Shown here in pieces: positions 12,327-30,591 of a stretch of 33,549 bases of DNA. The DNA is taken from positions 1 through 33,549 of the forward strand of contig JAUYKE010000003.1 of the NCBI GenBank assembly GCA_030700125.1, given 5' to 3'. The first letter of the stretch is position 1; every line of letters begins with the position of its first letter. A model generated the notes under the pieces. The model was not told the origin of the DNA. It made no database searches and saw only the letters and a program-made list of their open reading frames with translations. Both the position numbers and the translations under genes were made by a program. This stretch comes from Candidatus Colwellbacteria bacterium. GTDB taxonomy: Bacteria; Patescibacteriota; Minisyncoccia; UBA6257; Colwellbacteraceae.

Positions 12327-12457
12327 ACCGGGCAGTGAAAATTCGATCGCTTCGCGGCAAGATACATCATGGTGAAAAAACAATCCTGGAAATACTATAA
12401 AGTGCGCAGAAAGGCCGATTCTTATTTAAATAATCGAACTTCTACTGCCCGGTGAAC
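12324..12457. mobile_element. 129-bp MITE-like insertion with terminal inverted repeats and TGAAC direct repeats
   Basis: ACCGGGCAGT (12327) pairs with ACTGCCCGGT (ends 12453), plus TTCGAT/ATCGAA. TGAAC occurs at 12324 and 12453. Removing one unit restores ATG AAC ACC ATC overlapping the ATPase stop. Confidence 0.6.
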
Positions 12458-14148: not shown

Positions 14149-14698
14149 AATCAAATCGCTGCCGCTTACATATTTTGGCAATCCGATACTAAGAAGGAAA
14201 GCCAGGAAAGTTAAAATTAGTGAAATAAAAAAAGCCGGTTTTCAGAGGCTTATCAAACAAATGGTCCTCACTACAAGGAAGGAATCTGGAGTAGGCTTGG
14301 CTGCTCCGCAGATTGGGAGATCCATTCAGCTTGCAGTCATTGAAATCAAGAAAACTAAAATCAGGCCCCAAATCACACCTTTAAAATTAACCGTCATTAT
14401 AAATCCCCAGATAATTCATTATTCAAGAGTAAGAATTCATGATTGGGAGGGGTGCTTAAGTTTTCCCGCAGTGAGAGGACTGGTACCAAGAAACAAATTA
14501 ATAAAAGTAAAATATCTAAACGAGCTAGGAAAGAAGCAAACTTTAGATCTAAAAGATTTTCAAGCGAGAGTTTTTCAGCACGAAATAGATCATCTAAACG
14601 GAATATTATTTATAGATAGAGTGAAAGATGTGAGAACACTTATGACACTGGGGGAATTTGAGCAACGCATTCTAAGGAAGGGTTTAAAAAGTAAGTAG
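14141..14698 (+). CDS. def: Peptide deformylase
   Basis: GVGLAAPQIG, EGCLS and QHEIDH motifs. Confidence 0.96.
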   Translation: MPKIKSLPLTYFGNPILRRKARKVKISEIKKAGFQRLIKQMVLTTRKESGVGLAAPQIGRSIQLAVIEIKKTKIRPQITPLKLTVIINPQIIHYSRVRIHDWEGCLSFPAVRGLVPRNKLIKVKYLNELGKKQTLDLKDFQARVFQHEIDHLNGILFIDRVKDVRTLMTLGEFEQRILRKGLKSK

Positions 14699-14724
14699 TA
14701 AGAATTTGTAGTAGAATTGAGATA

Positions 14725-17575: not shown

Positions 17576-17580
17576 AAATC

Positions 17581-17663
17581 CTAGAATCTAGTAAGTAGTA
17601 AATAGAAAATAGAAGAAACCGTCAAATCCTTCTAGATTCTACTTCCTACTTTCTATTTTCTAG
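17581..17663. repeat. Two inverted TAGNANN heptamer arrays forming an imperfect long hairpin
   Basis: Five units on + (17582-17616) and five units on - (about 17628-17662). Confidence 0.75.
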
Positions 17664-17695
17664 TTTGTGAGGATTATGATTAGGGCCCTAGCCCG

Positions 17696-19915: not shown

Positions 19916-20783
19916 ATTTCCCGCTCGCTTCCCTAATTAACCCTTTAAGTAATAGAACAGTAAGTGTCTGGTTCACTACTTGGGGTTCAAGCTTAGCCAA
20001 GGAAGCAATTCTGTCAATATAAATGGGCCCGCCAACCTCCTTTATAACTTTGAAAATTAATCCCTCGTTACCGTCGAGCCGTAGCTCTAGATCCTCATTT
20101 TTAATTCCTAGCTCCTCCATTCCTGTTTCTTGCAATAATCCAAGATCTTCGAGAATATCCGCCGCTTTTGCAATCAAAATTGCTCCATCTCTTATAAGGG
20201 CATGAGAACCAACGTAATTAGGATGAGTTACCGGCCCGGGAAGGACAAAGACACTTCGTCCCTGCTCGGCGGCAAAGCCAGCCGTTGCGAGCGCCCCGGA
20301 TTTAGTCGGGGCTTCGATAACTACGACCGCTACCGACAGCCCGCTTATAATTCGGTTACGGTGAATAAAATTCTGCTTAAATGAAGGCTCACCTGGCGGA
20401 TATTCCGAGATAATGGCTCCGCCGGTTTTGAGAATCTCTTCGGCTACCTTTTCGTTTTGGGCCGGATAAATTTCGTTAATCCCGTTGCCTAAAACTGCTA
20501 TCGTTCTACCTCCTATGCTAAGCGCTCCCCGATGAGCGGCAGTATCAATCCCCATCGCCAGCCCGCTTACTATAGTGATGCCTTGCCTTGCGAGTCTTGC
20601 CGCTATCTCTTCAGCCATTCCTATCCCAGCGGCGGTGGCTTTTCTGGTGCCCACAATGGCAACCGCCGGAATTGCGCTTCCGGGAAGCATCCCACGAAGA
20701 TGAATTTGCTTCGGCGGATTCTGGATCTCTTTCAGAAGAGACGGATAGTCCTCATTATTGATATCAATAGTTTGGAAATTCAT
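19896..20783 (-). CDS. dprA: DNA-processing protein DprA/Smf
   Basis: AIVGTRKAT, IVSGLAMGID, RNRIISGLS, SGALATA, a C-terminal wHTH, and dprA-topA synteny. Confidence 0.96.
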   Translation of the reverse strand: MNFQTIDINNEDYPSLLKEIQNPPKQIHLRGMLPGSAIPAVAIVGTRKATAAGIGMAEEIAARLARQGITIVSGLAMGIDTAAHRGALSIGGRTIAVLGNGINEIYPAQNEKVAEEILKTGGAIISEYPPGEPSFKQNFIHRNRIISGLSVAVVVIEAPTKSGALATAGFAAEQGRSVFVLPGPVTHPNYVGSHALIRDGAILIAKAADILEDLGLLQETGMEELGIKNEDLELRLDGNEGLIFKVIKEVGGPIYIDRIASLAKLEPQVVNQTLTVLLLKGLIREASGKYEINYR

Positions 20784-20786
20784 TTC

Positions 20787-20808
20787 ATGGTGAGCTTGTC
20801 GAGTCCAT
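20787..20808 (+). repeat. Degenerate TGAGCTTGTCGA-family palindrome in the dprA leader
   Basis: ATGG-TGAGCTTGTCGAGT-CCAT shares its 12-nt core with the 25475-25494 copy. Confidence 0.6.
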
Positions 20809-20858
20809 TATAAGTGAGTGGCAATCGGGATGCTTTTAATATATCATAACTGTAATTA

Positions 20859-21380
20859 ATGACTCGCGACTTTAGAAAACGCCTCACAATTAGTGTCGCC
20901 GTCGCCGCCGGAATTACTGTAGCTCTCCTCTCACTCTTGTTTCTTGTTGGTCGAGACGTTCAGAGCCAAGCGGGCAATATCAAATCCGCGAAAGACGGTT
21001 TAAAAACCCGAGTCCAACAGCTAAATGACTTGGCTCGACTAAGGGAAGAAGCCAAACTAGCTGAGCCAGATCTAGCTAAATTGAGACAGATCGTTCCCCA
21101 GCGAGATGAACTTTTCTCCGTTCGGCGCGAGCTGGAGCAATTAGCCAGCAATAACAATCTTGCCGTTAGCTTCACCTTTGGCAGTGAGAACCCGAAGGAA
21201 GATAATTTAGGGAGCATTAATTTTGAGCTTAAACTCCAGGGCGGCGAATATGAAGTGGGAAGCTTTATTAATCAAGTTGAATCAAGGTATCCTTTTGTGA
21301 GAATCAGCTCCCTGGACATGGTGCGCCAGGAGAATAAGTTTAGCTCTACGCTCGGGGGAAAGATTCTATTTAACGAATGA
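20859..21380 (+). CDS. PilO-like type IV pilus assembly protein
   Basis: N-terminal TM, coiled coil, then a ferredoxin-like pattern (ELEQLASNNNL...FINQVES..PFVRISSLDM). Confidence 0.65.
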   Translation: MTRDFRKRLTISVAVAAGITVALLSLLFLVGRDVQSQAGNIKSAKDGLKTRVQQLNDLARLREEAKLAEPDLAKLRQIVPQRDELFSVRRELEQLASNNNLAVSFTFGSENPKEDNLGSINFELKLQGGEYEVGSFINQVESRYPFVRISSLDMVRQENKFSSTLGGKILFNE

Positions 21381-21568
21381 AAAAATTATCTCAAGATATA
21401 ACTTTCCTCATTATCGGGGTAGTGCTTCTTATCTTTACCATCGGAGGCATTATTTACTTCATTGGATTTTTGAGTAATAATATCTTCTCGGCGCTCGCCC
21501 CAGGCCAAGATAACGGCGCAATAATCAAATTTGATTCAGAGGGTTTTGAATCACTTGGGATAGAGTAG
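21377..21568 (+). CDS. Small single-TM hypothetical protein
   Basis: ATGA overlap with the upstream gene; one hydrophobic helix. Confidence 0.65.
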   Translation: MKKLSQDITFLIIGVVLLIFTIGGIIYFIGFLSNNIFSALAPGQDNGAIIKFDSEGFESLGIE

Positions 21569-21604
21569 GCCTGCCCCGTGGTGAGCGGAGCGAATTTTAC
21601 GGGG
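21569..21604 (+). repeat. GCCTGCCCCGTG...TTTTACGGGG hairpin repeat abutting tRNA-Ile
   Basis: CCCCGT/ACGGGG stem; both ends are shared with the minus-strand copy at 27451-27484. Confidence 0.7.
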
Positions 21605-21677
21605 GCGCGTAGTTCAGTGGTAGAACGCTATCCTGATAAGATAGAAGTCGTAGGTTCGATCCCTACCGCGCCCACCA
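21603..21677 (+). tRNA. tRNA-Ile(GAT)
   Basis: GGGCGCG/CGCGCCC acceptor stem, CTATC-CTGATAA-GATAG anticodon arm, GTTCGAT T-loop, encoded CCA. Confidence 0.97.
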
Positions 21678-21732
21678 AAACCATACTTTTCGGTTTTTCG
21701 GAGGCCATTTATTAAGCAGCGCCCTGCTCCGT

Positions 21733-23679
21733 CTAAGAACCGGCTCCCAATACAATCCTGAAAGGACTATCGCTTGAGTCGCAATTTTTCGAAGCGGTTT
21801 GGGTTTGACAAACTTGAACCGTGTACGAACCATCAGGAGCAACACCACCAGTTCCAGTGCCGAGAGCTTCCAAATACTCACCTACCGACCAGCTGTACGA
21901 AGAATCAGACACGCCTCTCACGCCTTTTGCAATCGTATACGGTCCTGCAATAGGGTACCTGGGAGGAGGATAGACGCCCGTGTACGCCGTCGGATAGTTA
22001 GGAATTAACTTGATGTCATAGTATCTCGGCGCAGGCATTATTCTTATACAGTATGTCCCAACTGGGCATGGCGGAATGGGCGTGCTGTCGTACCATTTGA
22101 TTGTTTGTGTTGTGCCTTTTGTCCAAGTTTCTCCACCGTTCGGTGAAAGGACAGTGATAGATGATTGAAGAGAGCTGTCTACGTCTACCGTGAACACATG
22201 CTCATCACTCCCGCCTCGGCAGTCGCTTACTGTTGCTTTTACTGTGTACGTTCCTGCATTTGCCCATGCGTGAGATGCATTGAAAGTCCATACTTGTTTG
22301 TTCTGCGGATTTGGCGATTGACACGCTCCTGCAACTCCGGTTCCATCACCCCACGATATTGACCACGAGAGATTGTCGCCGTCAGCGTCAGTCGCGCCCA
22401 AACCGAACAAAACGGATTGATTGACTTTGATGTTATCAGTGGGAATTTGGGAGATCCTGTTGATGACGGGAGGAGAGTTTGTGCCCACTCCGTCGCTTAC
22501 ACTAACACTAACGCTTGTTTGGGCAGAAAGACCGCCATTGTCCGTGACTGTAAATGCGGGAGTGTACGTGCTAGTTTTTGGATAGACGTGAGTAAATGTT
22601 GCGGTTTGCGCTACAACTCCACTTGCTGAAGGAACCGCGCGCTCTGCAATACCGACACCAGCAACTTCATCCCCCCAGACTACCGAGTATGTAAGAGGTC
22701 CCTGTTCCGGATCAGAAGCTTTTACTTCCCACTTTCCAATCTCGCCAACCTTAAGAACGCTTGGGCCGGAAACGCCGCTGATGGTTGGAGGGAGATTACT
22801 GGCATTCCCACTTACAATCGTGAAGTAGTTATCACTTGAGTCACAGATCGTGGATCCGGTTTGGCAAATTTGAATCGTGTATGGGCCATCGGGCGCGATC
22901 CTACCTGCTGGGATCTCACCTACTGACCATCTATATGAGGTACCGTATCCACCGTATACATTGTTGACAATCGGATACGGCGCAATGCGCAGATAGCGAG
23001 GGGCTAACTTGATGTCGTAGTATCTCGCCGGGGGAGGGGGAGATCCAGAGAGTACCTCACCAGCTGGGCGTGACAGCACGCCGTCTCGCCATGTGATCGT
23101 CTGCGTCGTTCCCTTTGTCCATGTTTCGCCACCGTTTGGTGAAAGGACAGTAAGTCTGTCGGTCGGGAGTATTGGTGGAGGACATATGATAATTATTTTT
23201 GCGCGTGTTTGTGGACCTACAATGCCATAACCTGTTGTCGCAGGACTTCCAGAAGAAATAACCCCTTGCTTTGCTTGCCAGCGCTGCACCGCTTTTTCGG
23301 TAAGCTCACCATAGTATCCTGTTATGAGTCTTTCTGGATATACGGTTGGGTCCTCGGCTAGTATTTTCTGCAGTTTCGTCACCTCTCCTCCAGTTCCTTT
23401 GTCGTTTACGCCGCGATAAAGAGTGTACAAGAACACGGGACGACACCCTGGAAGAACTGACGGCGGTTCCGGCTCAGTCGGACTTGTGCCGCCCAACTGC
23501 TGCTGCAGAAGTTTAATCCGCGCTTGCAACTGTTCGACTTGTTCCTGCAGCTGTTGAATGGTGTGCGCAGTAGTATGATCAGCTGCGGCAAGATGGGGAA
23601 CAGAGAAACTGACTCCCAAAACCACGAAAATAAACAGCAATGATAATGTTAATAGTTTTATTTGATTGTTCACATTCAT
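21733..23679 (-). CDS. Secreted surface protein: signal/TM, coiled coil, PG_binding_1-like domain, two SPNGGE Ig-like repeats flanking two PKD-like domains
   Basis: GEVTKLQKIL..TGYYGELTEKAVQRWQ..GIVGPQTR; two WGD..H motifs; duplicated TVLSPNGGETWTKGTTQTI.W. Confidence 0.85.
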   Translation of the reverse strand: MNVNNQIKLLTLSLLFIFVVLGVSFSVPHLAAADHTTAHTIQQLQEQVEQLQARIKLLQQQLGGTSPTEPEPPSVLPGCRPVFLYTLYRGVNDKGTGGEVTKLQKILAEDPTVYPERLITGYYGELTEKAVQRWQAKQGVISSGSPATTGYGIVGPQTRAKIIIICPPPILPTDRLTVLSPNGGETWTKGTTQTITWRDGVLSRPAGEVLSGSPPPPARYYDIKLAPRYLRIAPYPIVNNVYGGYGTSYRWSVGEIPAGRIAPDGPYTIQICQTGSTICDSSDNYFTIVSGNASNLPPTISGVSGPSVLKVGEIGKWEVKASDPEQGPLTYSVVWGDEVAGVGIAERAVPSASGVVAQTATFTHVYPKTSTYTPAFTVTDNGGLSAQTSVSVSVSDGVGTNSPPVINRISQIPTDNIKVNQSVLFGLGATDADGDNLSWSISWGDGTGVAGACQSPNPQNKQVWTFNASHAWANAGTYTVKATVSDCRGGSDEHVFTVDVDSSLQSSITVLSPNGGETWTKGTTQTIKWYDSTPIPPCPVGTYCIRIMPAPRYYDIKLIPNYPTAYTGVYPPPRYPIAGPYTIAKGVRGVSDSSYSWSVGEYLEALGTGTGGVAPDGSYTVQVCQTQTASKNCDSSDSPFRIVLGAGS

Positions 23680-23738
23680 AAATAGCTAAATTTTACTTGC
23701 GACCTATTACTGAAATAATACAATACAATACAATATAA

Positions 23739-23814
23739 ATAGTATCCACTAAAGATTTTGACGAGGCGCGTAAAAGAGAGCTATATTTAAAATCCGCTGC
23801 TGATAGAAAGTTTT
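23739..23814 (+). pseudogene. C-terminal relic of a small GIY-YIG nuclease
   Basis: Frame 23739 reads IVSTKDFDEARKRELYLKSAADRKF, resembling the EARKRExYLKSxxGR tail of small GIY-YIG proteins. It is preceded by TAA and has no N-terminal GIY-YIG motif. Confidence 0.55.
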
Positions 23815-23886
23815 GGGCGATTAGTTCAGTGGTAGAATGCTTCCTCGACACGGAAGAGGTCGCTGGTTCGATCCCAGCATCGCCCA
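23815..23886 (+). tRNA. tRNA-Val(GAC)
   Basis: GGGCGAT/ATCGCCC acceptor stem, CTTCC-TCGACAC-GGAAG anticodon arm, GTTCGAT T-loop; no CCA. Confidence 0.96.
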
Positions 23887-23899
23887 CATAATAGTTTCT

Positions 23900-24955
23900 A
23901 TGCACTACACCGAAATTACCGACCAGTTTAGAGCAGATTTTTTCAAGCTCACTGACGAAGCCAAAAGCATTTGCATCACTGCCCATATGTCAGCGGACGA
24001 GGATGCGATTGCCTCTGCTCTCGCAACTTACCGCCTGCTTTCGGATAAATATCCGGGAAAAAACATTCAAATCATCTATACGGGCGAACCAAATAATAGA
24101 TTCCGGCCGTTTGAGAATTTTGAAAAAATCCAGTTTGTGCCGGATCTTTCAGATTATCTTGATAAATTTGACCTCGCTATATTACTCGATGGAGGCAATT
24201 ATCACCGCTTCATCTCAAAGCCAGACAAACTGAAAGAATTCCCAGGTAAGAAAATCTGTATTGACCATCACAGCTCGCCGCCGGATAAATTTGATCTCGC
24301 TCTTATTGCTCCTCAAATTCCATCCACCGCTGAGATTATTTACCTTATCTTCTATAAGAACGCCCCGATAAATAAGCCATTAGCCGAGATTTTTCTTTTG
24401 GGCATTCTCGGCGACACCGGCAATTTCTCTTATTTGAAGCCCGACCAGACAGAAACTTTCCTTACGGCAAAAAGATTAGTAGAAGAAAGCGGGATAGAAA
24501 TTGCCGCCCTACAATCCCGTTATCGCACCCTTGAACCGGAGATTTTAACCGCTCTTGGTGAGCTAATTAAAAATACTAGCTATCACAAGATTGATAATTG
24601 GCCTCCTCTCCAGGCAAGTTTTCTAGGTCGCACTTTTGCTGAGGACAACAGTCTTTCAGATAGACAAATAGGCGAAGCGGCGGAACTCTACACCGTTTTC
24701 TTCATCAGGTCCGTCGTGGGTTTCAGTTGGGGTTTTACTATACGGCCGAAGAGTAATGGGGAATGCAATATCTCCCTTAGATCTTTACCCGGAAGCGTCA
24801 ATGTCCGTGAGCTAGCAGAGCGAATGGGGGTTGGCGGTGGGCATGATCGGGCCGCTGGTGGGACGTTCAAGGAAAAGGGTAAAGTCTTGGATTCAAAGGA
24901 GTGCCTCGATAAAGTTCTTGATTGGATAAATAAGAATGAACCAGTCATCGGTTAG
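23900..24955 (+). CDS. DHH/DHHA1 phosphoesterase (NrnA-like)
   Basis: H..ADEDAIAS, ILLDG, IDHH, GILGDTGNF, SLRS and GGGHDRAAG motifs; start set at ATG 23900, after the tRNA. Confidence 0.92.
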   Translation: MHYTEITDQFRADFFKLTDEAKSICITAHMSADEDAIASALATYRLLSDKYPGKNIQIIYTGEPNNRFRPFENFEKIQFVPDLSDYLDKFDLAILLDGGNYHRFISKPDKLKEFPGKKICIDHHSSPPDKFDLALIAPQIPSTAEIIYLIFYKNAPINKPLAEIFLLGILGDTGNFSYLKPDQTETFLTAKRLVEESGIEIAALQSRYRTLEPEILTALGELIKNTSYHKIDNWPPLQASFLGRTFAEDNSLSDRQIGEAAELYTVFFIRSVVGFSWGFTIRPKSNGECNISLRSLPGSVNVRELAERMGVGGGHDRAAGGTFKEKGKVLDSKECLDKVLDWINKNEPVIG

Positions 24956-25045
24956 AAAATAGAATCTAGAATCTAGAAAATAGAAGTATTTGTAAATTGA
25001 ATCATTGAAAATTCAATGAAAATTGAGAAATGAAAATTGAAAATT
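24953..25045 (+). repeat. (TAGAANN)x5 array followed by a TGAAAAT-type array running into the RluA start
   Basis: TAGAAAA TAGAATC TAGAATC TAGAAAA TAGAAGT, then TGTAAAT TGAATCAT TGAAAAT TCAA TGAAAAT TGAGAAA TGAAAAT TGAAAAT. Confidence 0.8.
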
Positions 25046-25773
25046 CACTCTCTCCGCGAGTTATCTACGAGGACAAAAACTTCCTGGCACTTGATAAGCC
25101 GGCGGGGTTGCTAGTCCATCCAACAGCTAGCTCCAAGGAGCCCACTTTAGTTAACTGGCTTCTCAAGCGATATCCGGAAATGAAAAAAGTTGGAGATTCG
25201 GATCGACCGGGGATTGTTCACCGGCTGGATAGAGATACCTCCGGCATTATCCTTACAGCCAAAAATCAAAAATATTTTGAATATTTAAAAAATCTTTTTC
25301 AAACTCGCGCTATTAAGAAGACCTACCGGGCTTTAGTTTACGGTAAACTGACTCCTAAAAAAGGAATTATTGAAAAAGATATCAAGATAAGATCCGGCAC
25401 CACCAAACGCACGGTTTTTAAGGGTCGATCTGAAAAAGCGGCAGTTACGGAATACAAAGTGCTGAAGCACTTTGCCCTGAGCTTGTCGAATGGGTCACAG
25501 TCGTACTTCAGCTGGGTAGAGATAAAACCGCTTACCGGCCGTACCCATCAAATTAGGGTTCATCTCGCCTCCATCGGTCACTCGGTAGTAGGGGATAAAC
25601 TCTATGGTCCCAAGAAATCTAAGGAAGTCGGACTTCCTAATGCTAACCGCCAATTTCTCCATGCCTATTCATTGGAATTCAGTCCTTCTCCGGGTAAACG
25701 ATTAAAATTAGCTGCCGACTTACCGGCAGACATAAAAGAGGTTTTACGAAACCTAAAAGTTGCAAAACATTAA
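25030..25773 (+). CDS. RluA-family pseudouridine synthase (no S4 domain)
   Basis: DKPAGLLVHP, HRLDRDTSG, TGRTHQIRVH, GDKLYG and FLHA motifs. Confidence 0.95.
   Translation: MKIENSLSPRVIYEDKNFLALDKPAGLLVHPTASSKEPTLVNWLLKRYPEMKKVGDSDRPGIVHRLDRDTSGIILTAKNQKYFEYLKNLFQTRAIKKTYRALVYGKLTPKKGIIEKDIKIRSGTTKRTVFKGRSEKAAVTEYKVLKHFALSLSNGSQSYFSWVEIKPLTGRTHQIRVHLASIGHSVVGDKLYGPKKSKEVGLPNANRQFLHAYSLEFSPSPGKRLKLAADLPADIKEVLRNLKVAKH
25475..25494 (+). repeat. In-frame REP-like palindrome CCCTGAGCTTGTCGAATGGG (ALSLSNG)
   Basis: Same family as 14778-14796 and 28207-28225. Confidence 0.72.
25622..25638. repeat. In-frame palindrome AGGAAGTCGGACTTCCT (KEVGLP)
   Basis: 8-bp arms; CTAA direct repeats 18 nt apart. 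Confidence 0.6.
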
Positions 25774-25807
25774 GGAAGTCGCTAAACTGGATTGGCAATT
25801 CAAAGCT

Positions 25808-26107
25808 ATGATCGATGCAGAAACACTAAAAAAGTTGAAGCCTGGCACAAGAGTCAAGGTCCACGAAAAGCAGGGCTTTTTTGAGGGGATTGTTCTAGCG
25901 CGAAAGCACGGCACTGAACCGGGGGCCACTTTTACCGTGAGAGCTAAATTAGCTGACATTGGCGTTGAGAAGGTTTATCCGATTTATTCCCCCAACATCA
26001 AAAAACTAGAGATTCTAACTACTCCAAAAAGGAGAGTGAGGAGGGCTAAGCTTTATTATCTCCGCAATCTCCCCGAGAAAAAGATTAGACAAAAACTCGG
26101 AGTTTAA
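25808..26107 (+). CDS. rplS: 50S ribosomal protein L19
   Basis: FEGIVLARK, TFTVR, GVEKVYPIYSP and RVRRAKLYYLR motifs. Confidence 0.96.
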   Translation: MIDAETLKKLKPGTRVKVHEKQGFFEGIVLARKHGTEPGATFTVRAKLADIGVEKVYPIYSPNIKKLEILTTPKRRVRRAKLYYLRNLPEKKIRQKLGV

Positions 26108-26124
26108 TCAAAATAGTAGAGCGC

Positions 26125-26208
26125 GCGCGGGTGGTGAAATTGGTAGACACGCCACTTTGAGGGGGTGGTGCCCGCAAGGGCTTGGAGGTTCGAGTCCTCT
26201 CCCGCGCA
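26125..26208 (+). tRNA. tRNA-Leu(GAG)
   Basis: GCGCGGG/CCCGCGC acceptor stem, CCACT-TTGAGGG-GGTGG anticodon arm, long variable arm, GTTCGAG T-loop. Confidence 0.96.
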
Positions 26209-26259
26209 CAAGCAAATTTTGCTAATTAAAGGTCGTAAAATTAGATAAAATTTAATTCT

Positions 26260-26445
26260 ATGGAAGGACGCAAATCATTAGACTGTCGGCTTATGCCGAG
26301 TAAAAGTCAGTGCAATCTTTTTATGAGCGGCAGCGAAGAGCATCTCTTGCCGGCGGCAGTGGAGCACGCCGTAAATAAGCACGGCCACGAAGACACGCCG
26401 GAACTGCACGAGCAGATTAAAGGAATGATGAAAGACGAGGGGTAA
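26260..26445 (+). CDS. DUF1059-like small metal-binding protein
   Basis: DCR.MPS...C....G.EE.LL.AA.EHA...HGH..TPEL pattern. Confidence 0.75.
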   Translation: MEGRKSLDCRLMPSKSQCNLFMSGSEEHLLPAAVEHAVNKHGHEDTPELHEQIKGMMKDEG

Positions 26446-26471
26446 TTCTATTTAGAGGAGAAAAAAGTTAC

Positions 26472-26508
26472 CACACAAAAGCCCGCATCTTATGCGGGCT
26501 TTTGTGTG
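26472..26508. terminator. Bidirectional intrinsic terminator
   Basis: 17-bp perfect inverted repeat CACACAAAAGCCCGCAT/ATGCGGGCTTTTGTGTG. Confidence 0.8.
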
Positions 26509-26544
26509 ACGAGAAGCACTCCCCGCGCTATACTCCGCCCGCGT

Positions 26545-26572
26545 TTGACAAAACCTATTTTTCTGGTATCAT
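26545..26572 (+). promoter_or_regulatory. Sigma70-type promoter
   Basis: TTGACA-16 nt-TATCAT with a TG extension. Confidence 0.7.
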
Positions 26573-26616
26573 ATAGCCAGTTTTAGTTCTTCGACAACAA
26601 GAGATTGGGGGTTCTA

Positions 26617-26979
26617 ATGCCCGTAAAACGAGTACACGAAAGGCAACTCTCGATTAGCAAGCACATCAGAGCTCCCGACCATCAGCGACTGGCCGATGAC
26701 CTGAAGGCGGAGATCGACCGCAAGCAACGTCAGCTTCACCGCACCCGTCTTCTCCTGGAAGATGAACGGTACCTCGGCAATCGGTCTGGACCCCAGGGGC
26801 AGTGGAAGCAGCATCGAGAGAAGCTGCAGGAGCTGCAAGTGATGGAGACCGAGCTCGTCGCCGATCTTCAAAGGCTCGATGAAAGACTGTGTCAACTCGG
26901 CGGCCATCCGAATTTCCGAACCCCGATCGTAGAGGGGTACGGATTAGCGGATGCCCTCCGAAAACTTGGCAAAGAATAG
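26617..26979 (+). CDS. Hypothetical coiled-coil protein
   Basis: 120-aa ORF downstream of a promoter; heptad-like charged helices. Confidence 0.6.
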   Translation: MPVKRVHERQLSISKHIRAPDHQRLADDLKAEIDRKQRQLHRTRLLLEDERYLGNRSGPQGQWKQHREKLQELQVMETELVADLQRLDERLCQLGGHPNFRTPIVEGYGLADALRKLGKE

Positions 26980-26994
26980 TTGAGAGGAGAGCAA

Positions 26995-27393
26995 ATGGCG
27001 AAGGTTCTTATCTTGGAGGATAGCAAGACGAGCAGAGCTCTCTTTCTAGATCAGCTTGAAGGGGAGCCGGTGGAGGTCGTGATCGCGGAGACGGCGGCAG
27101 AGGCGCGAGACTTCTTCGAAAGCGATGAATTTGATGTCATCGCGCTTGATGGTATCGCTCCGAGTGCTCCAGATCAAGGAGCATCTCTTGTCGGACCCCT
27201 CCTCGCCCGCGAGTTTCGCAACAAGGGATACAAGGGTTTCATTGTCGCGATCTCCAGTGATTCGGAGGTACGGGCGCTCACGAAGAAGGAGGCAGGGGAG
27301 AGAGTACTTCATCGCGCTTACGCTTGTGAGAAGCTCCGTCTCGCCGACCTCATTCGGGAGCTTCTTCTGGGCATCTACCCCACCTCGAAGTAG
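26995..27393 (+). CDS. Stand-alone response-regulator receiver (CheY-like) protein
   Basis: KVLILED acidic pocket, FDVIALDG phospho-Asp, IVAISS and a late Lys; GAGGAG SD. Confidence 0.8.
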   Translation: MAKVLILEDSKTSRALFLDQLEGEPVEVVIAETAAEARDFFESDEFDVIALDGIAPSAPDQGASLVGPLLAREFRNKGYKGFIVAISSDSEVRALTKKEAGERVLHRAYACEKLRLADLIRELLLGIYPTSK

Positions 27394-27398
27394 AAGTC

Positions 27399-27431
27399 TG
27401 TGAGCGGGGCGGCAATGCCGCCCCGCTCACA
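27399..27431. terminator. GC-rich hairpin after the receiver gene
   Basis: TGTGAGCGGGGCGGCA-A-TGCCGCCCCGCTCACA, 16-bp perfect arms. Confidence 0.6.
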
Positions 27432-27450
27432 CGAACTTTTTCAAAAATTT

Positions 27451-27484
27451 TCCCGTAAAACTCTTTCAGAGTCACGGGGCAGGC
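27451..27484 (-). repeat. GCCTGCCCCGTG...TTTTACGGGA hairpin repeat
   Basis: Minus strand GCCTGCCCCGTGACTCTGAAAGAGTTTTACGGGA; ends match the 21569 copy. Confidence 0.7.
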
Positions 27485-27502
27485 AAACATTTCCAAACAA
27501 AC

Positions 27503-27529
27503 CAAAACCCCGCCTAAGGCGGGGTTTTG
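27503..27529. terminator. Bidirectional terminator at the end of the 3D-domain gene
   Basis: CAAAACCCCGCCT-A-AGGCGGGGTTTTG. Confidence 0.78.
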
Positions 27530-27973
27530 TTATAAGATCTCGACTCGGGCCACTTGGGTCCCGAACCGCAGCGCTTCGTCAGTGCTTGAGAACCAAACAT
27601 CAACTTTACCGTTCATTCTACTATGCATCCGGTCTTCTACTATGAAGACCTGATCACCGAATAGCGTCGGGATTCTGATTTTGGCACCGAGGGGCAGCCA
27701 GTTGGCCGCCACAACTCCCGGCCGAACCTTTGTCCCGGCAGCGGTCATGAACGGAGTATCATCTGTTTCTCCGACCCGACTGGAGTAAGCTGTAATTACC
27801 ACTTTCACAAACCTACTTTTCGCACTTTGAGGTGTCTCAGTCGGGCTTTGGTTCAAGAGGGCTGTATCTTGAGCCACCGGCAGTGGCTCGTAGCCTACTG
27901 CGCCTCCTGTAACCGCAATTTTCAAGGTTCCAAGCATGACTAAAAGAAACGCCGAGATGAGGTATTTACTCAT
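27530..27973 (-). CDS. 3D-domain protein (putative peptidoglycan lytic transglycosylase)
   Basis: Signal peptide, TAYSS..ETDDTPFMTAAG, VAANWLPLG, VEDR and VDVW motifs. Confidence 0.88.
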   Translation of the reverse strand: MSKYLISAFLLVMLGTLKIAVTGGAVGYEPLPVAQDTALLNQSPTETPQSAKSRFVKVVITAYSSRVGETDDTPFMTAAGTKVRPGVVAANWLPLGAKIRIPTLFGDQVFIVEDRMHSRMNGKVDVWFSSTDEALRFGTQVARVEIL

Positions 27974-28021
27974 TCTGGGCAATAAAAAACCCCGTTTTAT
28001 CGGGATTTCTACTGCTCCATC

Positions 28022-28051
28022 ATCCTACCATATCGGGTCTCAAAAAGTCAA
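28022..28051 (-). promoter_or_regulatory. Sigma70-type promoter for the 3D-domain gene
   Basis: Minus strand TTGACT-18 nt-TAGGAT with a TG extension. Confidence 0.6.
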
Positions 28052-28127
28052 CCCCAACACCTAATGAGGATGTGCATGGCCTTTTTGCGCCTACGGCACT
28101 AACCCTCATTAGGTGTGGGGGTCAACC
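28047..28127. repeat. 74-nt hairpin insertion flanked by GTCAACC direct repeats
   Basis: 13-bp perfect stem ACACCTAATGAGG/CCTCATTAGGTGT plus CCCC/GGGG. Confidence 0.65.
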
Positions 28128-28153
28128 AGTCGTCTACAGGGGGTCAAGAGGAG

Positions 28154-28302
28154 CGCCCAGCACCTTGCTGTCGTAGAGAACCTCTCGCAGTTCCGCTGGG
28201 CTCGGTCCCTGAACTTGTTGAAGGGCCAGCGGAACGAGAGGAGGAGGTCCGACCGCTGGAGTCGGACAATCCGAGTTCTCATAGACAGCAAGGTGCTGGG
28301 CG
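28154..28302 (+). ncRNA. Copy 2 of the ~150-nt structured element (unidentified ncRNA or ssDNA mobile element)
   Basis: 19-bp perfect closing stem and a three-way junction; stems covary with the parB-internal copy. Transcription is not demonstrated. Confidence 0.65.
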
Positions 28303-28358
28303 ACATCCCCCTTAAAGGAAGAGGTATTGGTAAGCACCCATGTTAAAATAAAAATGCC

Positions 28359-28895
28359 ATGCGAGAATATTTTACGCCCGGAATCGTCCTTGATAGGGAA
28401 CCGAGAAACGAATTAGACGAAGACATCATCATCTACACGAAAAATTTAGGCAAAGTAAGGGCCTTCACTAAAAGTAGCCGGAAAATTACTTCTAAGCTTT
28501 CCGGTCATCTCACTCCCGGTCGCCTGGCCAACCTCAGATTTGTTGAAAGAAACAAGCTCCAATTGGTAGATGCTCTATCTCTTCCCGCGCCCGGCAACCC
28601 CAAAGAGCTTTTGTTCTTCCTCAATTTTATCAACAAAACTACCCCTTACGGCGATGCCGATTTAAGTTTATGGTATATGGTAGAAGAAATTGTTGGAGGT
28701 AATCATTTGAGTCCCGCTATTTATCGGCACCTCCTTGAACGGCTGGGATTTGGCGGGGAAGAAGTTAATTGTCATTACTGCGAAAACGGTGAAGTAAACT
28801 TCTTTGATCCGTCCGAAACTGTTTTTTTGTGTTCTAAATGCCGCCCGGTAATAAATATTGACTTTGATGAACTCATCCTTTTGGAAGAAAGTTAG
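28359..28895 (+). CDS. recO: DNA repair protein RecO (short form)
   Basis: GIVL.....E.D..I.IYTK.LGKV...KSSRKITSKLSGHL and a CxxC..CxxC Zn finger. Confidence 0.88.
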   Translation: MREYFTPGIVLDREPRNELDEDIIIYTKNLGKVRAFTKSSRKITSKLSGHLTPGRLANLRFVERNKLQLVDALSLPAPGNPKELLFFLNFINKTTPYGDADLSLWYMVEEIVGGNHLSPAIYRHLLERLGFGGEEVNCHYCENGEVNFFDPSETVFLCSKCRPVINIDFDELILLEES

Positions 28896-30591
28896 AATAC
28901 CGTTCTTTGTTGGGCTTCTTATCTTGGTGCTCGTCGCCGGTTTTTTCCTCTACGAGCGGCTGAGGGGAGGGGTGGATCTCGCTATCCAATTACCGGACGG
29001 AGAAGTAGAACTAGGAGAGCCATTTGACATGGAGATTACTCTGGCCAATAACTCCGCTAATGCCTTAAGAAACGTTCGGCTCGAGCTTCATCTTCCGGAA
29101 GGATTGCTACTGGCTGACAGACCGGACGAGAAGATTATTTCCCGAGGAATCGGCGACATGGGAAACGGCCGGCTCCACCGGGAAACCGTCAAAGTGGTCG
29201 CTGTTCCCGGAGAGAACCCCAACTACACTGCCAAGCTAGTCGCCTATTACGTGCCCGCCTCGATTTCAGCTAACCTTCAGAAAACCGAGGAAAAAGAAAC
29301 TCGGGTTAGAAAGCCGAATGTTTTGTTGGAATTGGGTGCCCCTGAGAGAATTTTCTCAAACGAAGAATTAGAAATAAAAACCTCATATAAAAATGAGTTG
29401 GAGCCAGAAAGCGGCAATTATTCGCTAGAGCTTAAGCTCAATTATCCGCCGGACTTGGATATTATTAGTCGCGAACCGATACCCAACGGAGAAAATAATA
29501 ACTGGCGGCTGGCGGATATCGGTCTCCGGGAAGGATCTGTTACCGTGCATGGCAATATAGAACTGCCGGACAGCGCCAGTTTCAACGTTAGAGCCGAACT
29601 GGTAATGAGAATTCTAGGCAAGGAGTATCCGGTTGTCTCAGCCACAAAGGATATTGCCATTAACCCCTCACCCCTCGCTTTTAGGGTCGGTCTAGGGAGC
29701 GGTAAAGAAACGGTAGAGCTCGGAGAAGAATTAATCTATTTCCTCCAGTACAAAAATAACGCCAATGTTCCTTTGGAGGATGTGGTAATTAGTGCCCAAC
29801 TTACTGGTGAGATGTTTGACTTCGGTTCCCTTGAAACCAATGGCGCGGCCGACGTCCTCACCGACACCCTAGTTTGGAGCCCTACCCAGATTAAAGATCT
29901 GGAAATATTAGAGCCGAATGAGGAAGGACAAGTTTCCTTTGCCATAAAGGTAAGAAACGATTATCCGGTCCAAGGGGTAAATAATAAGAATTTTGTATTG
30001 AAGGTTGGTGCGAGAATCGAATCGCCAACCGTTCCTCCTCCACTCACTATCAATAAAACCGTAAATTCGGGTAAATTAGAAACGAAAGTCGCCGGTAAAT
30101 TAGCCATAGAAGCCGGAGTTTTCTTTCGGGATGCGGCCGCCAAAATTGTTAATGGCGGACCAATGCCCCCGAAAGTCGGTGCGCCGACCAAGTTTACAAT
30201 CCATTGGTCTTTAAGTAATGCGGCGACCGATCTGGGAGGGGTAGAGGTCAAAGCTAAACTGGAGAATGGAGTATCTTTTACCGGCAAAGTGAAAAGCAAT
30301 ACCAACTCCTTACCCCAGTTCGATCCTGTCACAAGAGAGGTGATTTGGCGGCTGGAGCGAATACCTGCCAATAGCGGCGTTATAGAGGCAAAGCCGGAAG
30401 CAATTTTTCAAGTAGAAGCAGTTCCTTCAATCTCCCTGGTCAATGAGTATATGCCCCTTCTTAGTACCACGGAGCTAAGAGGCAGAGATGAGTTCACCGG
30501 TGCGGAGCTGCGAGGCAGCGCCTCGCCTCTCACTACCCGTCTCGAGAAAGACTCTACCGTTCAAGTAGGCGACGGCTTGGTCAGGCAATGA
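28867..30591 (+). CDS. Membrane-anchored multi-Ig-like (DUF11-like) hypothetical protein
   Basis: N-terminal TM followed by repeated beta-sandwich patterns (Y.LQYKNN...LEDVVI, LEPNEEGQVSF). Confidence 0.75.
   Translation: MNSSFWKKVRIPFFVGLLILVLVAGFFLYERLRGGVDLAIQLPDGEVELGEPFDMEITLANNSANALRNVRLELHLPEGLLLADRPDEKIISRGIGDMGNGRLHRETVKVVAVPGENPNYTAKLVAYYVPASISANLQKTEEKETRVRKPNVLLELGAPERIFSNEELEIKTSYKNELEPESGNYSLELKLNYPPDLDIISREPIPNGENNNWRLADIGLREGSVTVHGNIELPDSASFNVRAELVMRILGKEYPVVSATKDIAINPSPLAFRVGLGSGKETVELGEELIYFLQYKNNANVPLEDVVISAQLTGEMFDFGSLETNGAADVLTDTLVWSPTQIKDLEILEPNEEGQVSFAIKVRNDYPVQGVNNKNFVLKVGARIESPTVPPPLTINKTVNSGKLETKVAGKLAIEAGVFFRDAAAKIVNGGPMPPKVGAPTKFTIHWSLSNAATDLGGVEVKAKLENGVSFTGKVKSNTNSLPQFDPVTREVIWRLERIPANSGVIEAKPEAIFQVEAVPSISLVNEYMPLLSTTELRGRDEFTGAELRGSASPLTTRLEKDSTVQVGDGLVRQ

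Follow-up and report, generated by a model that had tools for sequence, protein, structure and literature searches.

Copies A and B of the window (the whole stretch of DNA analysed, 33,549 nt) are members of a ~150-nt interspersed repeat family of the CPR/Patescibacteria lineages searched, which is apparently undescribed. The family multiplies within genomes; its new copies have exact ends at the closing stem P1 and no target-site duplication. Insertion sites include intergenic positions, other copies of the element and, with the frame preserved, essential genes. One strand (+) is under selection, and pairing is kept while the stem sequences drift. We rate the chances as somewhat better than even that the family is a non-autonomous mobile structured repeat, in the manner of RPE or REPIN elements, that moves as a folded single strand, and its spread as a folded single strand is most likely.

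Overall structure of the element

Copy A occupies positions 28154-28302 (149 nt) and copy B positions 14925-15072 (148 nt). The two lie 13.2 kb apart on the same (+) strand. Both were delimited by their fold and by a covariance model (CM), which scores copy A at 139 bits (R1) and 125 bits (R2) and copy B, with CM bounds of 14924-15073 (150 nt), at 145 and 140 bits. Copies A and B share one three-way-junction fold, with a z score of about -10. The minimum free energies (MFE) are -93.1 kcal/mol for A and -87.9 kcal/mol for B, compared with -54 and -46 kcal/mol in dinucleotide shuffles, corresponding to z scores of -9.5 and -10.0, and none of the 200 shuffles is as low.

The fold is built from the helices P1 to P4. 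The closing stem P1 (17-24 bp) joins both ends of the element, and is followed by a small internal loop and the short helix P2, usually G-A-A-C/G-U-U-C. P3 is the long arm of the three-way junction and carries the asymmetric CGNAG/CGAG loop, the GCUUGGU bulge and an exchangeable tip, whereas P4 is a hairpin with the invariant loop C-CGCUGG-AG. In copy A, a 19-bp P1, a 3x3 internal loop and P2 lead to the junction, from which the P3 arm extends; this arm holds CGCAG/CGAG as its loop and GCTCGGT as its bulge, and the P4 hairpin ends in the loop CGCTGGA. The CGNAG/CGAG loop may be capable of forming two sheared G·A pairs.

An earlier note, made from the letters of the window alone, had compared the two copies, and its description agrees with the fold obtained here. 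The MFE structures contain the reported closing stems of 19 (A) and 17 (B) unbroken pairs, which are unrelated in sequence, and the GTA/ATA internal loop is found in both copies. P2 reads GAGAAC/GTTCTC in A and CGGAAC/GTTCCG in B and is followed by CGCAG, the 10-bp stems of A and B show three compensated differences, and the GCTYGGT segment and the identical last-hairpin loop CGCTGGA on unrelated stems are likewise present. In addition, the AGGGGGT.AAGA motif that had been noticed upstream lies 15-25 nt 5' of both A and B.

Covariation and the selected strand

The pairing of the element is maintained by compensatory changes. In the A-B alignment, 19 of the 47 predicted pairs are preserved by two-sided changes. 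Among 29 copies, 95.4% of the cells are paired and two-sided changes occur in 50 of the 55 pairs, giving a covariation score of 0.82 against 0.21 for shuffled alignments (0/500) and 0.10-0.15 for slid partners. The alignment of 98 rows, which represents 97 distinct copies, is 92.3% paired and has a covariation score of 0.86 versus 0.21 when shuffled (0/500), in line with the covarying stems that had been proposed from two copies. Stems are variable across copies and internal loops constant. The unpaired segments CGNAG, GCUUGGU, CGAG and CCGCUGGAG are conserved at a level of at least 85%, whereas all 24 pairs of P1 show two-sided changes among copies, and the outer 10-14 nt of this stem differ freely even within one genome.

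The earlier note had proposed that a single-stranded fold is selected, with G-T wobbles favouring the + strand, and this proposal is upheld on larger sets by the covariation, the G·U excess and the MFE. G·U/U·G combinations outnumber A·C/C·A combinations by 74 to 18 in the 29 copies and by 292 to 84 among the 5111 cells of the 98 copies, in which G·U accounts for 5.7% of the cells. The MFE of the + strand is the lower one in 92 of 97 copies (one copy longer than 200 nt was dropped). Moreover, the + fold is favoured even in the 36 copies that lie flush with a stop codon, with 103 G·U against 32 A·C combinations. A mutual-information search for pseudoknots or loop-loop pairing revealed local register shifts only. 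The element copies have no reading frame in common: even the best one is open in only 33 of 72, and among the copies found in mnmA the frames are shifted against one another.

Family size and distribution

The source genome (G000, 555 kb) harbors nine canonical copies on six contigs plus two composites, as detected by blastn and nhmmer, together with diverged and nested variants. The R1 scores of the nine canonical copies range from 100 to 153 bits. The earlier note had missed at least seven of these canonical copies, as well as the in-frame location of copy B in parB. CM matches, numbering 1-22 each, are present in 18 of the 41 relatives searched (G000 included) and in none of the other 23, and a wider sample of 150 other genomes from across the phylum adds 12 with matches. 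The inference of a dispersed element thus holds well beyond A and B, and the CM search has recovered further homologues, whose absence would have weakened the case for a conserved family.

Public loci were collected by a loose three-motif pattern scan and then evaluated with the CM. The model accepts 23 of the 24 loci that carry a CPR label, but only 3 of the 96 labelled otherwise and 0 of the 47 from viruses. Most genome-contig hits of the loose pattern and all 47 viral ones are chance occurrences and were rejected by the CM. The family is common to Saccharibacteria-, Parcubacteria- and Peregrinibacteria-labelled genomes.

In agreement with the earlier failure to recognise a known RNA family, Rfam 15 gave no match to one. 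At gathering thresholds, the whole window returned rRNA and tRNA only; the region 28000-28400, searched at E up to 10, gave two chance matches to miRNA models; and nine loci searched at E up to 1 gave a single unrelated match, located in a flank. Full-text literature searches on CPR, Patescibacteria, Saccharibacteria or Parcubacteria in connection with structured RNA, repeats or MITEs returned no description of the family.

Insertion sites and mobility

Copy A is intergenic, with a recO-like gene in the same orientation 57 nt downstream. Copy B lies within the parB gene (14725-15900, + strand, 391 aa), in frame and in the sense direction, and supplies approximately residues 67-116 of the ORF. 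The parB frame remains open across the insert, and the encoded residues belong to the disordered linker that separates the N-terminal peptide from the ParB_N domain (Pfam, from residue 126). ParB linkers are long and hypervariable in this clade. The 19-nt apical hairpin of P3 in copy A (28207-28225, + strand) is the swappable tip of the element and recurs elsewhere in the genome: its reverse complement is found in the same parB linker (14778-14796, - strand), 130 nt 5' of copy B, and a one-mismatch copy is present on contig C25.

The mobility suspected in the earlier note is supported by near-identical copies at unrelated loci and by lineage-specific insertions. Two copies of the source genome (C34:16873 and C25:70598) are 98.6% identical from P1 to P1 and unrelated outside P1, and the homology between near-identical copies stops at the closing stem. 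Among the 16 pairs with at least 80% identity, 13 join copies of a single genome, or of a single public MAG or contig; one pair represents the same locus twice. Flanking direct repeats indicative of a target-site duplication are not clearly above the shuffled level, with 8 of 96 copies against 6.8 expected at k=4, and 3 against 0.4 expected at k=6, where the maximum among shuffles is also 3. No flank motif is conserved in general; 'NAG' before P1 and 'RA(C)ATC' after P1 are confined to one subfamily of the source genome. We also considered that the outer P1 might be a pre-existing terminator stem of the host into which the element had inserted. This origin was rejected because seven copies of the genome and one copy in another genome share P1.

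Only about 7 of the 98 copies are located in Pfam-confirmed genes. The parB gene contains an insert in G000 (sense) and, independently, in a relative, G023 (antisense), and none is found at 23 other parB loci of relatives. In mnmA, the same loop is interrupted in three genomes, and a single ancient insertion is not favoured because each of these inserts is closest to other copies of the element and not to the other two; the mnmA gene of the source genome itself has no insert. In-frame read-through without a stop codon is observed in parB (G000 and G023), in the three mnmA genes, and in an Aminotran_5 (iscS-like) gene, whereas the insertion in a Mur-ligase (folC-like) ORF is ambiguous. The element is antisense in six of the seven Pfam-confirmed hosts (three mnmA genes, the iscS-like gene, parB of G023 and the folC-like gene), including five of the six clear read-throughs. 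Moreover, the element and a diverged 'type 2' relative are nested in either direction, and one copy has a foreign hairpin within its GCUUGGU bulge.

In contigs from four DNA runs covering positions 13500-29500, no contig cleanly bridges an empty site of A or B, and the empty-site pattern of the C34 copy has 0 matches in metagenome contigs; neither an empty/filled polymorphism nor an excision product was seen in these contig searches. Depth is highest over the element, and contigs stop there or switch from one copy to another; this behaviour is consistent with a repeat in several copies but implies nothing further.

Orientation relative to neighbouring genes

Most copies are intergenic and are found in either orientation. 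Their placement relative to the neighbouring genes is asymmetric. The stop codon of a convergent gene lies at a median distance of 6 nt from the 3' end of the element and within 10 nt in 36 of 58 cases, whereas for co-directional genes the median distance from the stop to the 5' end is 129 nt, with only 4 of 43 stops within 10 nt. One copy has its 3' end abutting the apparent 3' end of a convergent tRNA gene, as judged by eye. Between tandem genes, 37 of 60 copies are antisense to both. In 72 of 98 copies, the flanking sequence, read on the strand of the element, is rich in C.

Since in most surviving copies the 3' end of the element is flush with the end of a convergent gene, its reverse complement would form the 3'-terminal hairpin of that gene's transcript. 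Downstream of the reverse complement, 19 of 96 copies have a T-run, defined as 5 or more T within 8 nt; on the other side, 3 of 96 do. Some copies may therefore have been co-opted as terminators or 3'-end protectors, because about one fifth of the flush copies are followed by a T-run. A canonical terminator, composed of a short GC hairpin and a T-run, is found beside the element in 1 of 96 copies on either side. In addition, the motif TTGAC is present within 60 nt downstream of 18 of 98 copies and upstream of 1 of 98, often 1-11 nt past P1 and with a -10-like hexamer at the correct spacing. Head-to-head pairs such as locus L017 have the arrangement 'stop | element | T-run | element | promoter'. 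Using sigma-70-like promoter hexamers, from which CPR promoters may differ, a strict scan located a promoter upstream of the element itself in 0 of 96 copies versus 13 of 96 downstream, and a relaxed scan in 2 of 96; of the four classes of promoter, the one directed into the element is the least frequent.

Search for a mobilising enzyme

The earlier note had suggested an HUH/Y1 transposase, a reverse transcriptase (RT) or a nuclease as a co-occurring partner. None was recognised by eye beside the nine copies of the source genome, where a minority of the neighbours was also scanned against Pfam, and in whole-genome searches of five element-rich genomes Y1 and RT genes were found in G007 only. 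Y1_Tnp, RVT_1, the TnpB zinc-ribbon, IS110 and rve have no match in G000 (96% complete), G018, G010 and G040 (99% complete), each such absence being weak evidence because MAGs are incomplete. G018 has 22 element matches and yet no Y1 gene was found in it, and RVT_1 is present in one of the five element-rich genomes (G007). In G069, two rve matches were obtained, one of them over the cut-off. The integron integrase model TIGR02249 exceeds its cut-off in 0 of 5 genomes (G000, G018, G010, G040 and G069), and these five contain only one or two Xer-like tyrosine recombinases each.

Among the relatives, Y1 genes are present in 9 of the 18 element-bearing genomes versus 3 of the 23 element-free ones (Fisher p 0.016, for related and hence non-independent genomes), and the RAYT-like subtype (217-256 aa) in 8 of 18 versus 2 of 23. 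No Y1 gene was found in the other nine element-bearing relatives, G000 among them. At the 10 RAYT-like loci examined, each gene is flanked by its own short perfect palindrome, unlike the conserved loops of the element, and the best CM score for the element at these loci is 23 bits.

Possible modes of spread and function

In the preferred reading of a mobile repeat, what moves would be one folded strand of ssDNA or RNA. It would be recognised in trans by a factor through its invariant junction, bulge and loop, not through its termini, and P1 would only set both ends side by side for cutting and joining. Such a recognition logic is reversed relative to classical MITEs, REPs and the ends of IS200/IS605, since in this family it is the interior that is conserved and the termini that vary, and this counts against the reading. 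Moreover, the strand that folds is for the most part the C-rich one, antisense to genes; IS608-type elements have the opposite strand preference, on the lagging-strand template, so that the bias runs the wrong way for an element of this type. Conservation of the loops across the phylum and the tandem G·A motifs would also be expected of a functional cellular RNA. The copies could accordingly be read as genes of a multi-copy family encoding a structured small RNA that acts in trans, which would be a new ncRNA class of the CPR as a whole and perhaps part of an RNP. The + strand would then be transcribed, P1 would shield the ends, the invariant loops would bind protein or RNA, and genic and nested copies would be accidents of duplication. 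The strong covariation with conserved loops, the G·U pairs favouring one strand, the possible tandem sheared G·A pairs, a motif frequent in RNA, the distribution across the phylum, and the presence of a spacer only at the 5' end, where room for a promoter would be needed, all agree with a small-RNA gene. We nevertheless think it improbable. Promoters into the element are the rarest class (0/96 strict, 2/96 relaxed, with sigma-70-like hexamers), and near-identical copies share no sequence upstream of P1, so the promoter is not copied along; the copy number among relatives ranges from none (23 of 41) to 22, so the element is not essential; and the strand that folds is antisense in 6 of 7 confirmed host genes and to both neighbours in 37 of the 60 copies between tandem genes. 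Alternatively, the element may serve its host in cis, with the minus strand providing the 3'-terminal hairpin of the preceding gene as a terminator, a block to 3' exonucleases or an insulator, so that each copy is kept at its site for this role and mobility is only its origin. The 36 of 98 copies with a 3' end within 10 nt of a convergent stop, the tRNA case, the T-runs (19/96 vs 3/96), the downstream TTGAC (18/98 vs 1/98) and head-to-head pairs such as L017 point in this direction. A cis role of this kind is about as improbable as a small-RNA gene, however, as the + fold is selected even in the 36 flush copies, in which the minus-strand RNA would bear mismatches and pyrimidine-rich loops, the T-run is absent in 77 of 96 copies, copies within coding regions cannot terminate, and 23 of 41 relatives have no element. 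The conserved junction and loops are also unexplained by a role in cis, because a simple hairpin would suffice.

A self-cleaving or self-splicing RNA, either a ribozyme or a minimal intron, would leave the host transcripts and could explain how insertion inside genes is tolerated. The compact fold with few invariant unpaired nucleotides, the bridging of the flanks by P1, the 150-nt CM bounds of copy B (a multiple of three), and the one mnmA site that is hit in three lineages, as by homing introns, are compatible with such an RNA. It is very improbable all the same: the host genes run antisense to the folding strand in 6 of 7 cases, of which five are in-frame read-throughs and the folC-like one is ambiguous, copy B is open in frame as well, Rfam contains no ribozyme or intron family that matches the region around A (E up to 10) or any of nine loci (E up to 1), and most copies are intergenic in either orientation. 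Mobilisation in trans by RAYT-like Y1 (HUH) transposases would make the element REPIN-like and genomes that lack the gene carriers of relics. The enrichment of Y1 (9/18 vs 3/23) and RAYT-like genes (8/18 vs 2/23) in element-bearing genomes argues for it, and the missing target duplication, strand-specific fold, compensatory stems and inverted pairs are REPIN traits as outlined in PMC3116915. However, all 10 RAYT-like loci have their own palindromes and reach at most 23 bits with the CM, the gene is missing in G018 with its 22 matches and in G000, G010 and G040, and the 98.6%-identical pair of G000 indicates recent activity without a detected Y1, making this route hardly probable. A further variant of the mobile reading, which we regard as doubtful, is that the fold itself is active, as a new CPR-specific class of ribozyme- or DNAzyme-like mobile element that would catalyse or directly template its own cutting and joining, or that the invariant junction and loops recruit a housekeeping enzyme, for example the single Xer-type recombinase or a factor of replication or repair. 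An active fold or such recruitment would account for the spread in genomes where none of the families searched yielded a transposase, for the conserved interior with free termini, and for the repeated hits in the mnmA loop.

Comparison with known repeats

The closest analogies by description are the RPEs and REPINs. RPEs, as presented in PMC10969869, are palindromic repeats of ~150 bp inserted in frame into genes. On the account given there, the element resembles them in its length of ~150 bp, its stable fold, its scattering in a reduced genome and the lack of a known transposase (PMC10969869), and likewise in its non-destructive, in-frame insertion in housekeeping genes, here parB twice, mnmA three times and an iscS-like gene (PMC10969869). 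The comparison is one by description, and the host here is CPR, not Rickettsia. Moreover, the element-encoded ORF with a conserved peptide has no counterpart here (best frame 33/72); the conserved feature is instead the three-way-junction fold with its invariant loops, and few copies are genic. REPINs show compensatory changes in transposed hairpins, which are predicted to fold as ssDNA or mRNA, according to PMC3116915. Non-autonomous hairpins with compensatory stems, insertion beside or into each other, and inverted doublets are common to REPINs or REPs, so far as PMC3116915 characterises them, and to the present family. REPINs have conserved REP ends, a variable spacer, an extragenic location and a cognate single-copy RAYT adjacent. 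In contrast, the element has variable ends, a conserved interior and some genic copies, and RAYT-like genes are associated with other palindromes or were not found.

The element also shares features with several other classes of repeats. ERIC/IRU, Correia/NEMIS and other MITE-like repeats are intergenic, 100-160 nt long and highly paired, occur in either orientation and are often co-transcribed, and some of them act as terminators or carry promoters. The present family resembles them in size, pairing, intergenic location and orientation in either direction; ERIC/Correia-type families, however, are confined to a genus or family, whereas the element spans many CPR candidate phyla. Neither the terminal inverted repeats of conserved sequence nor the target-site duplications that typify classical MITEs are seen here, and no parent IS was found among the families searched for it (rve and IS110, in G000, G018, G010 and G040). 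IS200/IS605 elements and attC sites offer a parallel for a strand-specific recognition of folded ssDNA without target duplication. The Y1 transposase of IS200/IS605 was not found in half of the carrier genomes. An attC site directly adjoins the stop codon of the ORF before it and folds on the strand antisense to that ORF, and the stop-flush, antisense placement of the element agrees with this arrangement. Unlike attC, the loop sequences of the element are conserved, its copies are dispersed among housekeeping genes without cassette arrays, and no integron integrase is over the cut-off. A retron, group II intron or SINE-like origin would involve an RT, and RVT_1 is present in one of the five element-rich genomes.

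Implications for CPR genomes

CPR/Patescibacteria genomes are among the smallest and most streamlined of bacteria, and are thought to be poor in selfish DNA and in known regulatory RNAs. The presence of at least 22 copies of a 150-nt element in a 0.7-Mb genome is at odds with the picture of genomes poor in selfish DNA, and the element retains an elaborate fold and inserts into essential genes without inactivating them. Our analysis provides a new covariance model for the annotation of CPR genomes and accounts for contig breaks in assemblies. The element is in addition a marker of recent genome dynamics and a natural source of insertions of ~50 residues in conserved proteins. Its invariant junction and loops, combined with a free closing stem, offer a defined target for finding a new nucleic-acid-handling activity. 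If the folded strand were an RNA with a trans function or catalysis, the family would constitute a new widespread class of RNA.

Other repeats adjacent to copy A

Copy A is flanked by parts of two other repeat families, which had escaped the earlier note. The 3' arm GAAGAGGTATTGGT of the diverged 'type 2' relative is located at 28318-28331 (+ strand), 16 nt 3' of copy A, and the same arm follows or encloses other element copies in the same genome. On the other side, a 72-nt hairpin formed by an inverted repeat (28051-28122, strand unassigned) is situated 31 nt 5' of copy A and is a neighbour of the copy, outside the element. The family of this hairpin has conserved ends, ACCCCAACAC.../...GTGTGGGGGT, and more copies in the genome, and one member is nested within a Saccharibacteria-labelled copy of the element.

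Common architecture of the two copies

The two copies of the element in the window, copy A (28154-28302) and copy B (14925-15072), both on the + strand, agree in sequence with their description in the earlier note. RNA folding yields one common architecture, with a minimum free energy (MFE) of -93.1 kcal/mol (z -9.5) for A and -87.9 kcal/mol (z -10.0) for B, and none of the dinucleotide shuffles was as stable as either copy. The closing stem P1 is unbroken, 19 or 17 bp long, and is followed by a 3x3 internal loop (GUA/AUA), inside which a 6-bp helix leads to a three-way junction. The long arm is interrupted by an internal loop (CGCAG opposite CGAG) and a GCUYGGU bulge and ends in a variable tip; the hairpin carries the loop CGCUGGA. 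When A and B are aligned pairwise, both-side changes preserve 19 of the 47 predicted pairs. The element has no match in Rfam 15, in line with the earlier note, which could not match it to RNase P, SRP, tmRNA, 6S, or riboswitch and small-ribozyme consensus sequences; in addition, no prior description of the family was found in the literature.

Distribution of the family

Searches of the genome holding the window (G000; 555 kb, 41 contigs) with blastn and nhmmer recovered nine canonical (type 1) copies on six contigs, together with two longer composites. The covariance model R1, built from the alignment of these nine copies (A3), scores them at 100-153 bits, and two weak R1 matches in G000 are diverged 'type 2' units. 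The search by covariance model proposed in the earlier note returned further homologues. Of 41 related genomes, G000 among them, 18 have R1 matches (1 to 22 per carrier); besides G000, the carriers are 11 of 24 genomes of its family and 6 of 16 genomes of the order outside that family. A second model, R2, built from 29 copies from 18 genomes (alignment A5), matches 12 of 150 further genomes, an even sample across the phylum; with only 20 candidates scored in each genome, the counts in this survey are minima.

Among public genomes, a loose three-motif pattern scan gave 120 loci, 26 of which were confirmed by R2. The model confirms 23 of the 24 loci with a CPR group in the record title (Saccharibacteria nine times, Liptonbacteria, Colwellbacteria, Nealsonbacteria, Azambacteria, Magasanikiibacteriota, Peregrinibacteria, Parcubacteria and 'Patescibacteria group') and only three of the 96 non-CPR-labelled loci, namely two contigs of one Actinomycetota-labelled MAG and one 'uncultured bacterium'. 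None of the 47 pattern loci on viral contigs was confirmed by R2.

Selection on the folded + strand

Standard pairs occupy 95.4% of the pair cells in the alignment of 29 copies, and 50 of its 55 pairs show both-side change. The covariation score is 0.82 versus 0.21 for shuffled alignments (reached by none of 500) and 0.10-0.15 in the slid-partner control. An alignment of 98 rows (97 distinct) is 92.3% paired and scores 0.86 versus 0.21 (0/500), the both-side-change measure being saturated at this size (reached by 20 of 500 shuffles). Both alignments are model-fitted; an unfitted MAFFT alignment of the nine G000 copies gives a like pattern (37 of 55 pairs). The compensated stems with invariant loops, previously noted for A and B, are seen on 29 and 98 copies, with covariation far over shuffles. 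Every stem varies, P1 most of all, and the unpaired CGNAG, GCUUGGU, CGAG and C-CGCUGG-AG are at least 85% conserved. CGNAG opposite CGAG could form C-G, G·A, A·G and G-C pairs with one bulged base.

The earlier claim that G-T wobbles favour the + strand is borne out: in 5111 cells there are 292 G·U/U·G against 84 A·C/C·A (in A3, which is unfitted, about 30 against 7), and the MFE is lower on the + strand in 92 of 97 copies (mean -73.8 vs -65.9 kcal/mol). Mutual information gave no loop-loop pairing. Reading frames through the copies differ, and the best frame is open in 33 of 72 copies at most, so that it is the nucleic-acid fold, not a peptide, that is conserved.

Multiplication, boundaries and nesting

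The G000 copies C34:16873-17022 and C25:70598-70747 are 98.6% identical, and the copy at C21:12361 shares 94.6% identity with both; similarity among the three stops at the first and last base pair of P1, beyond which the flanks are unrelated. Among 16 copy pairs at least 80% identical, one of which is the same locus twice, 13 lie within one genome or one public MAG/contig. Flanking direct repeats, as signs of target duplication, were not clearly above shuffled flanks, and no empty site was found in contigs aligned to the window or in the metagenome pattern scan.

Type 2, a diverged form with its own closing arms AACCAATATCTCTTC / GAAGAGATATTGGT, is seen on its own, nested in type-1 frames and enclosing a type-1 copy. 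Its sites in G000 are C16:12795-12922, C32:1948-2076, C25:49974-50186 and C16:10604-10819 (at the latter two, a type-1 frame has its interior replaced by a type-2 unit), and C21:12312-12540, where a whole type-1 copy sits between type-2 arms. Both nesting breakpoints fall at the CGSAG motif. The type-2 3' arm alone follows copy A (window 28318-28331) and the C25:70598 copy. Moreover, the GCUUGGU bulge of one Saccharibacteria-labelled copy holds a foreign hairpin with CTTG on either side, and in another copy the P3 tip is enlarged by ~190 nt of additional hairpins. G000 contains three occurrences of a 19-nt mini-hairpin, at window 28207-28225 (+), where it is the P3 apical tip of copy A, at window 14778-14796 (-), freestanding in the parB linker, and at C25:23327-23345; this recurrence suggests modular exchange of the P3 tip.

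Insertions in genes

Copy B lies inside the disordered linker of a ParB protein that starts with a conserved N-terminal peptide and has its ParB_N domain from residue 126. The element is absent from 23 parB loci of relatives, and the parB of G023 harbors a separate copy at another linker position in the opposite orientation. The ParB linkers of the clade (L030-L053), located between an N-terminal LG(R/K)GLxSLI peptide and the ParB_N domain, are unusually long (60-140 aa), hypervariable and of low complexity.

In MnmA, the same loop, directly after the ATGHYVR motif, holds a copy in three genomes (two Saccharibacteria-labelled and G040), all antisense with in-frame read-through. These copies are not mutual nearest relatives, that of G040 being closest to other G040 copies; judged by sequence, they would represent independent insertions, and one ancient insertion is not favoured. 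The insert is absent from the mnmA of G000. An Aminotran_5 (iscS-like) gene contains one copy as well, and a Mur-ligase (folC-like) ORF with a copy is an ambiguous case.

Placement and orientation

According to crude ORF calls, in which single rows are possibly wrong, 60 of 98 copies are flanked by tandem genes (37 antisense, 23 sense), 18 have convergent neighbours and 13 have divergent ones. Stop codons facing the 3' end of the element (n=58) show a median gap of 6 nt, with 36 gaps of ≤10 nt, versus 129 nt and four such gaps at the 5' end (n=43). The copy at L232:2001-2147 ends, by eye, 2 nt from the apparent 3' end of a convergent tRNA gene, so the tendency to lie flush with gene ends may cover RNA genes too.

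Where the next gene downstream runs in the direction of the element, a TTGAC(A) box is often found 1-11 nt past P1 with a correctly spaced -10-like hexamer. TTGAC occurs within 60 nt downstream of 18 of 98 copies and upstream of one; strict promoter-like sites number 13/96 downstream-forward vs 0/96 upstream-forward (16 and 2 in a relaxed scan). Of 96 copies, 19 have a T-run after their reverse complement and 3 have one on the other side. In 72 of 98 copies the element strand is rich in C over the ±2-kb flanks (binomial p 4e-6, though copies are not independent), and same-contig matches are mostly co-stranded (in G069, for example, 6/6 and 5/6 on its two large contigs); effects of gene strand and of replication strand are inseparable here. 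Adjacent copies form four inverted pairs, each of them head to head. TTATCCACA, which we take to be the DnaA-box consensus, lies ≤10 nt from the 3' end of three of 98 copies (L088, L109, L239) and within ~20 nt after both G000 composites (C25:~50200, C16:~10590), often followed by a C-run.

Mobilising enzymes and candidate readings

The earlier note suggested looking for a Y1 transposase, RT or nuclease. In genome-wide searches of five carriers, G007 has one Y1 and one RT, and G000, G018, G010 and G040 have no match to Y1_Tnp, RVT_1, TnpB zinc-ribbon, IS110 or rve. G069, covered by the rve and integron-integrase searches, has two rve matches, one over the cut-off. No integron integrase exceeds the cut-off in G000, G018, G010, G040 and G069, each with only one or two Xer-like recombinases. 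All these absences refer to draft genomes, 88-100% complete.

We lean towards a non-autonomous mobile element, which would spread as a folded single strand recognised via its invariant interior, some copies being co-opted as gene-end structures. The closest known kinds are RPEs, with in-frame insertions into the genes of a reduced genome (PMC10969869), and REPINs, compensated hairpins folding as single strands (PMC3116915). The defining features of known kinds, namely conserved termini, target duplication, a conserved peptide and a cognate RAYT, were not found here. A REPIN-type element driven by a RAYT is a poor candidate. Y1_Tnp matches occur in 12 of the 41 relatives, in 9/18 carriers and 3/23 non-carriers (Fisher p 0.016, though relatedness makes the genomes non-independent), and most are RAYT-like proteins of 217-256 aa with the HUH motif. 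Each of their genes has its own short, perfect flanking palindrome with no relation to the element, and the covariance model, run with filters off, found nothing above 23 bits at these loci. A host cis element or terminator is unlikely; 3' ends close to stop codons stand beside copies inside parB and mnmA. A trans-acting ncRNA gene family, with the + strand fold conserved and promoter-like sites mainly downstream of the copies, is no less doubtful. A ribozyme or intron seems very improbable; the Rfam scan gave no such family.

Other repeats in the window and elsewhere

The RAYT-like Y1 (HUH) genes at L262-L269 (G025, G033, G016, G021, G037, G022, G007), with genome-specific, perfect palindromes of 25-60 nt on both sides, are classical REP/RAYT-type units in CPR genomes; G037 has two in tandem. 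Three more long inverted repeats (window 8696-9098, 9212-9548 and 12327-12453; arms 21-28 nt, 85-347 nt apart) have no Rfam match at gathering thresholds.

A second family of hairpin repeats has conserved end sequences (ACCCCCACAC... / ...GTGTGGGGGT) around a variable stretch of 30-130 nt. It is found at window 28051-28122, 31 nt upstream of copy A, at C5:~5395, C13:15178-15310 and C23:~2603 of G000, and at L114:5430-5613. The hairpin nested in the GCTTGGT bulge of the Saccharibacteria-labelled copy belongs to this family, and the CTTG on both sides resembles a target duplication. A similar end adjoins a RAYT-like gene in L261.

Finally, a 139-nt intergenic stretch (window 17576-17716), just past the 5' end of a relA/spoT-like ORF (15872-17575, minus strand), is swapped for 51 other letters in contigs from three runs of three studies; this difference is an indel polymorphism among related strains.
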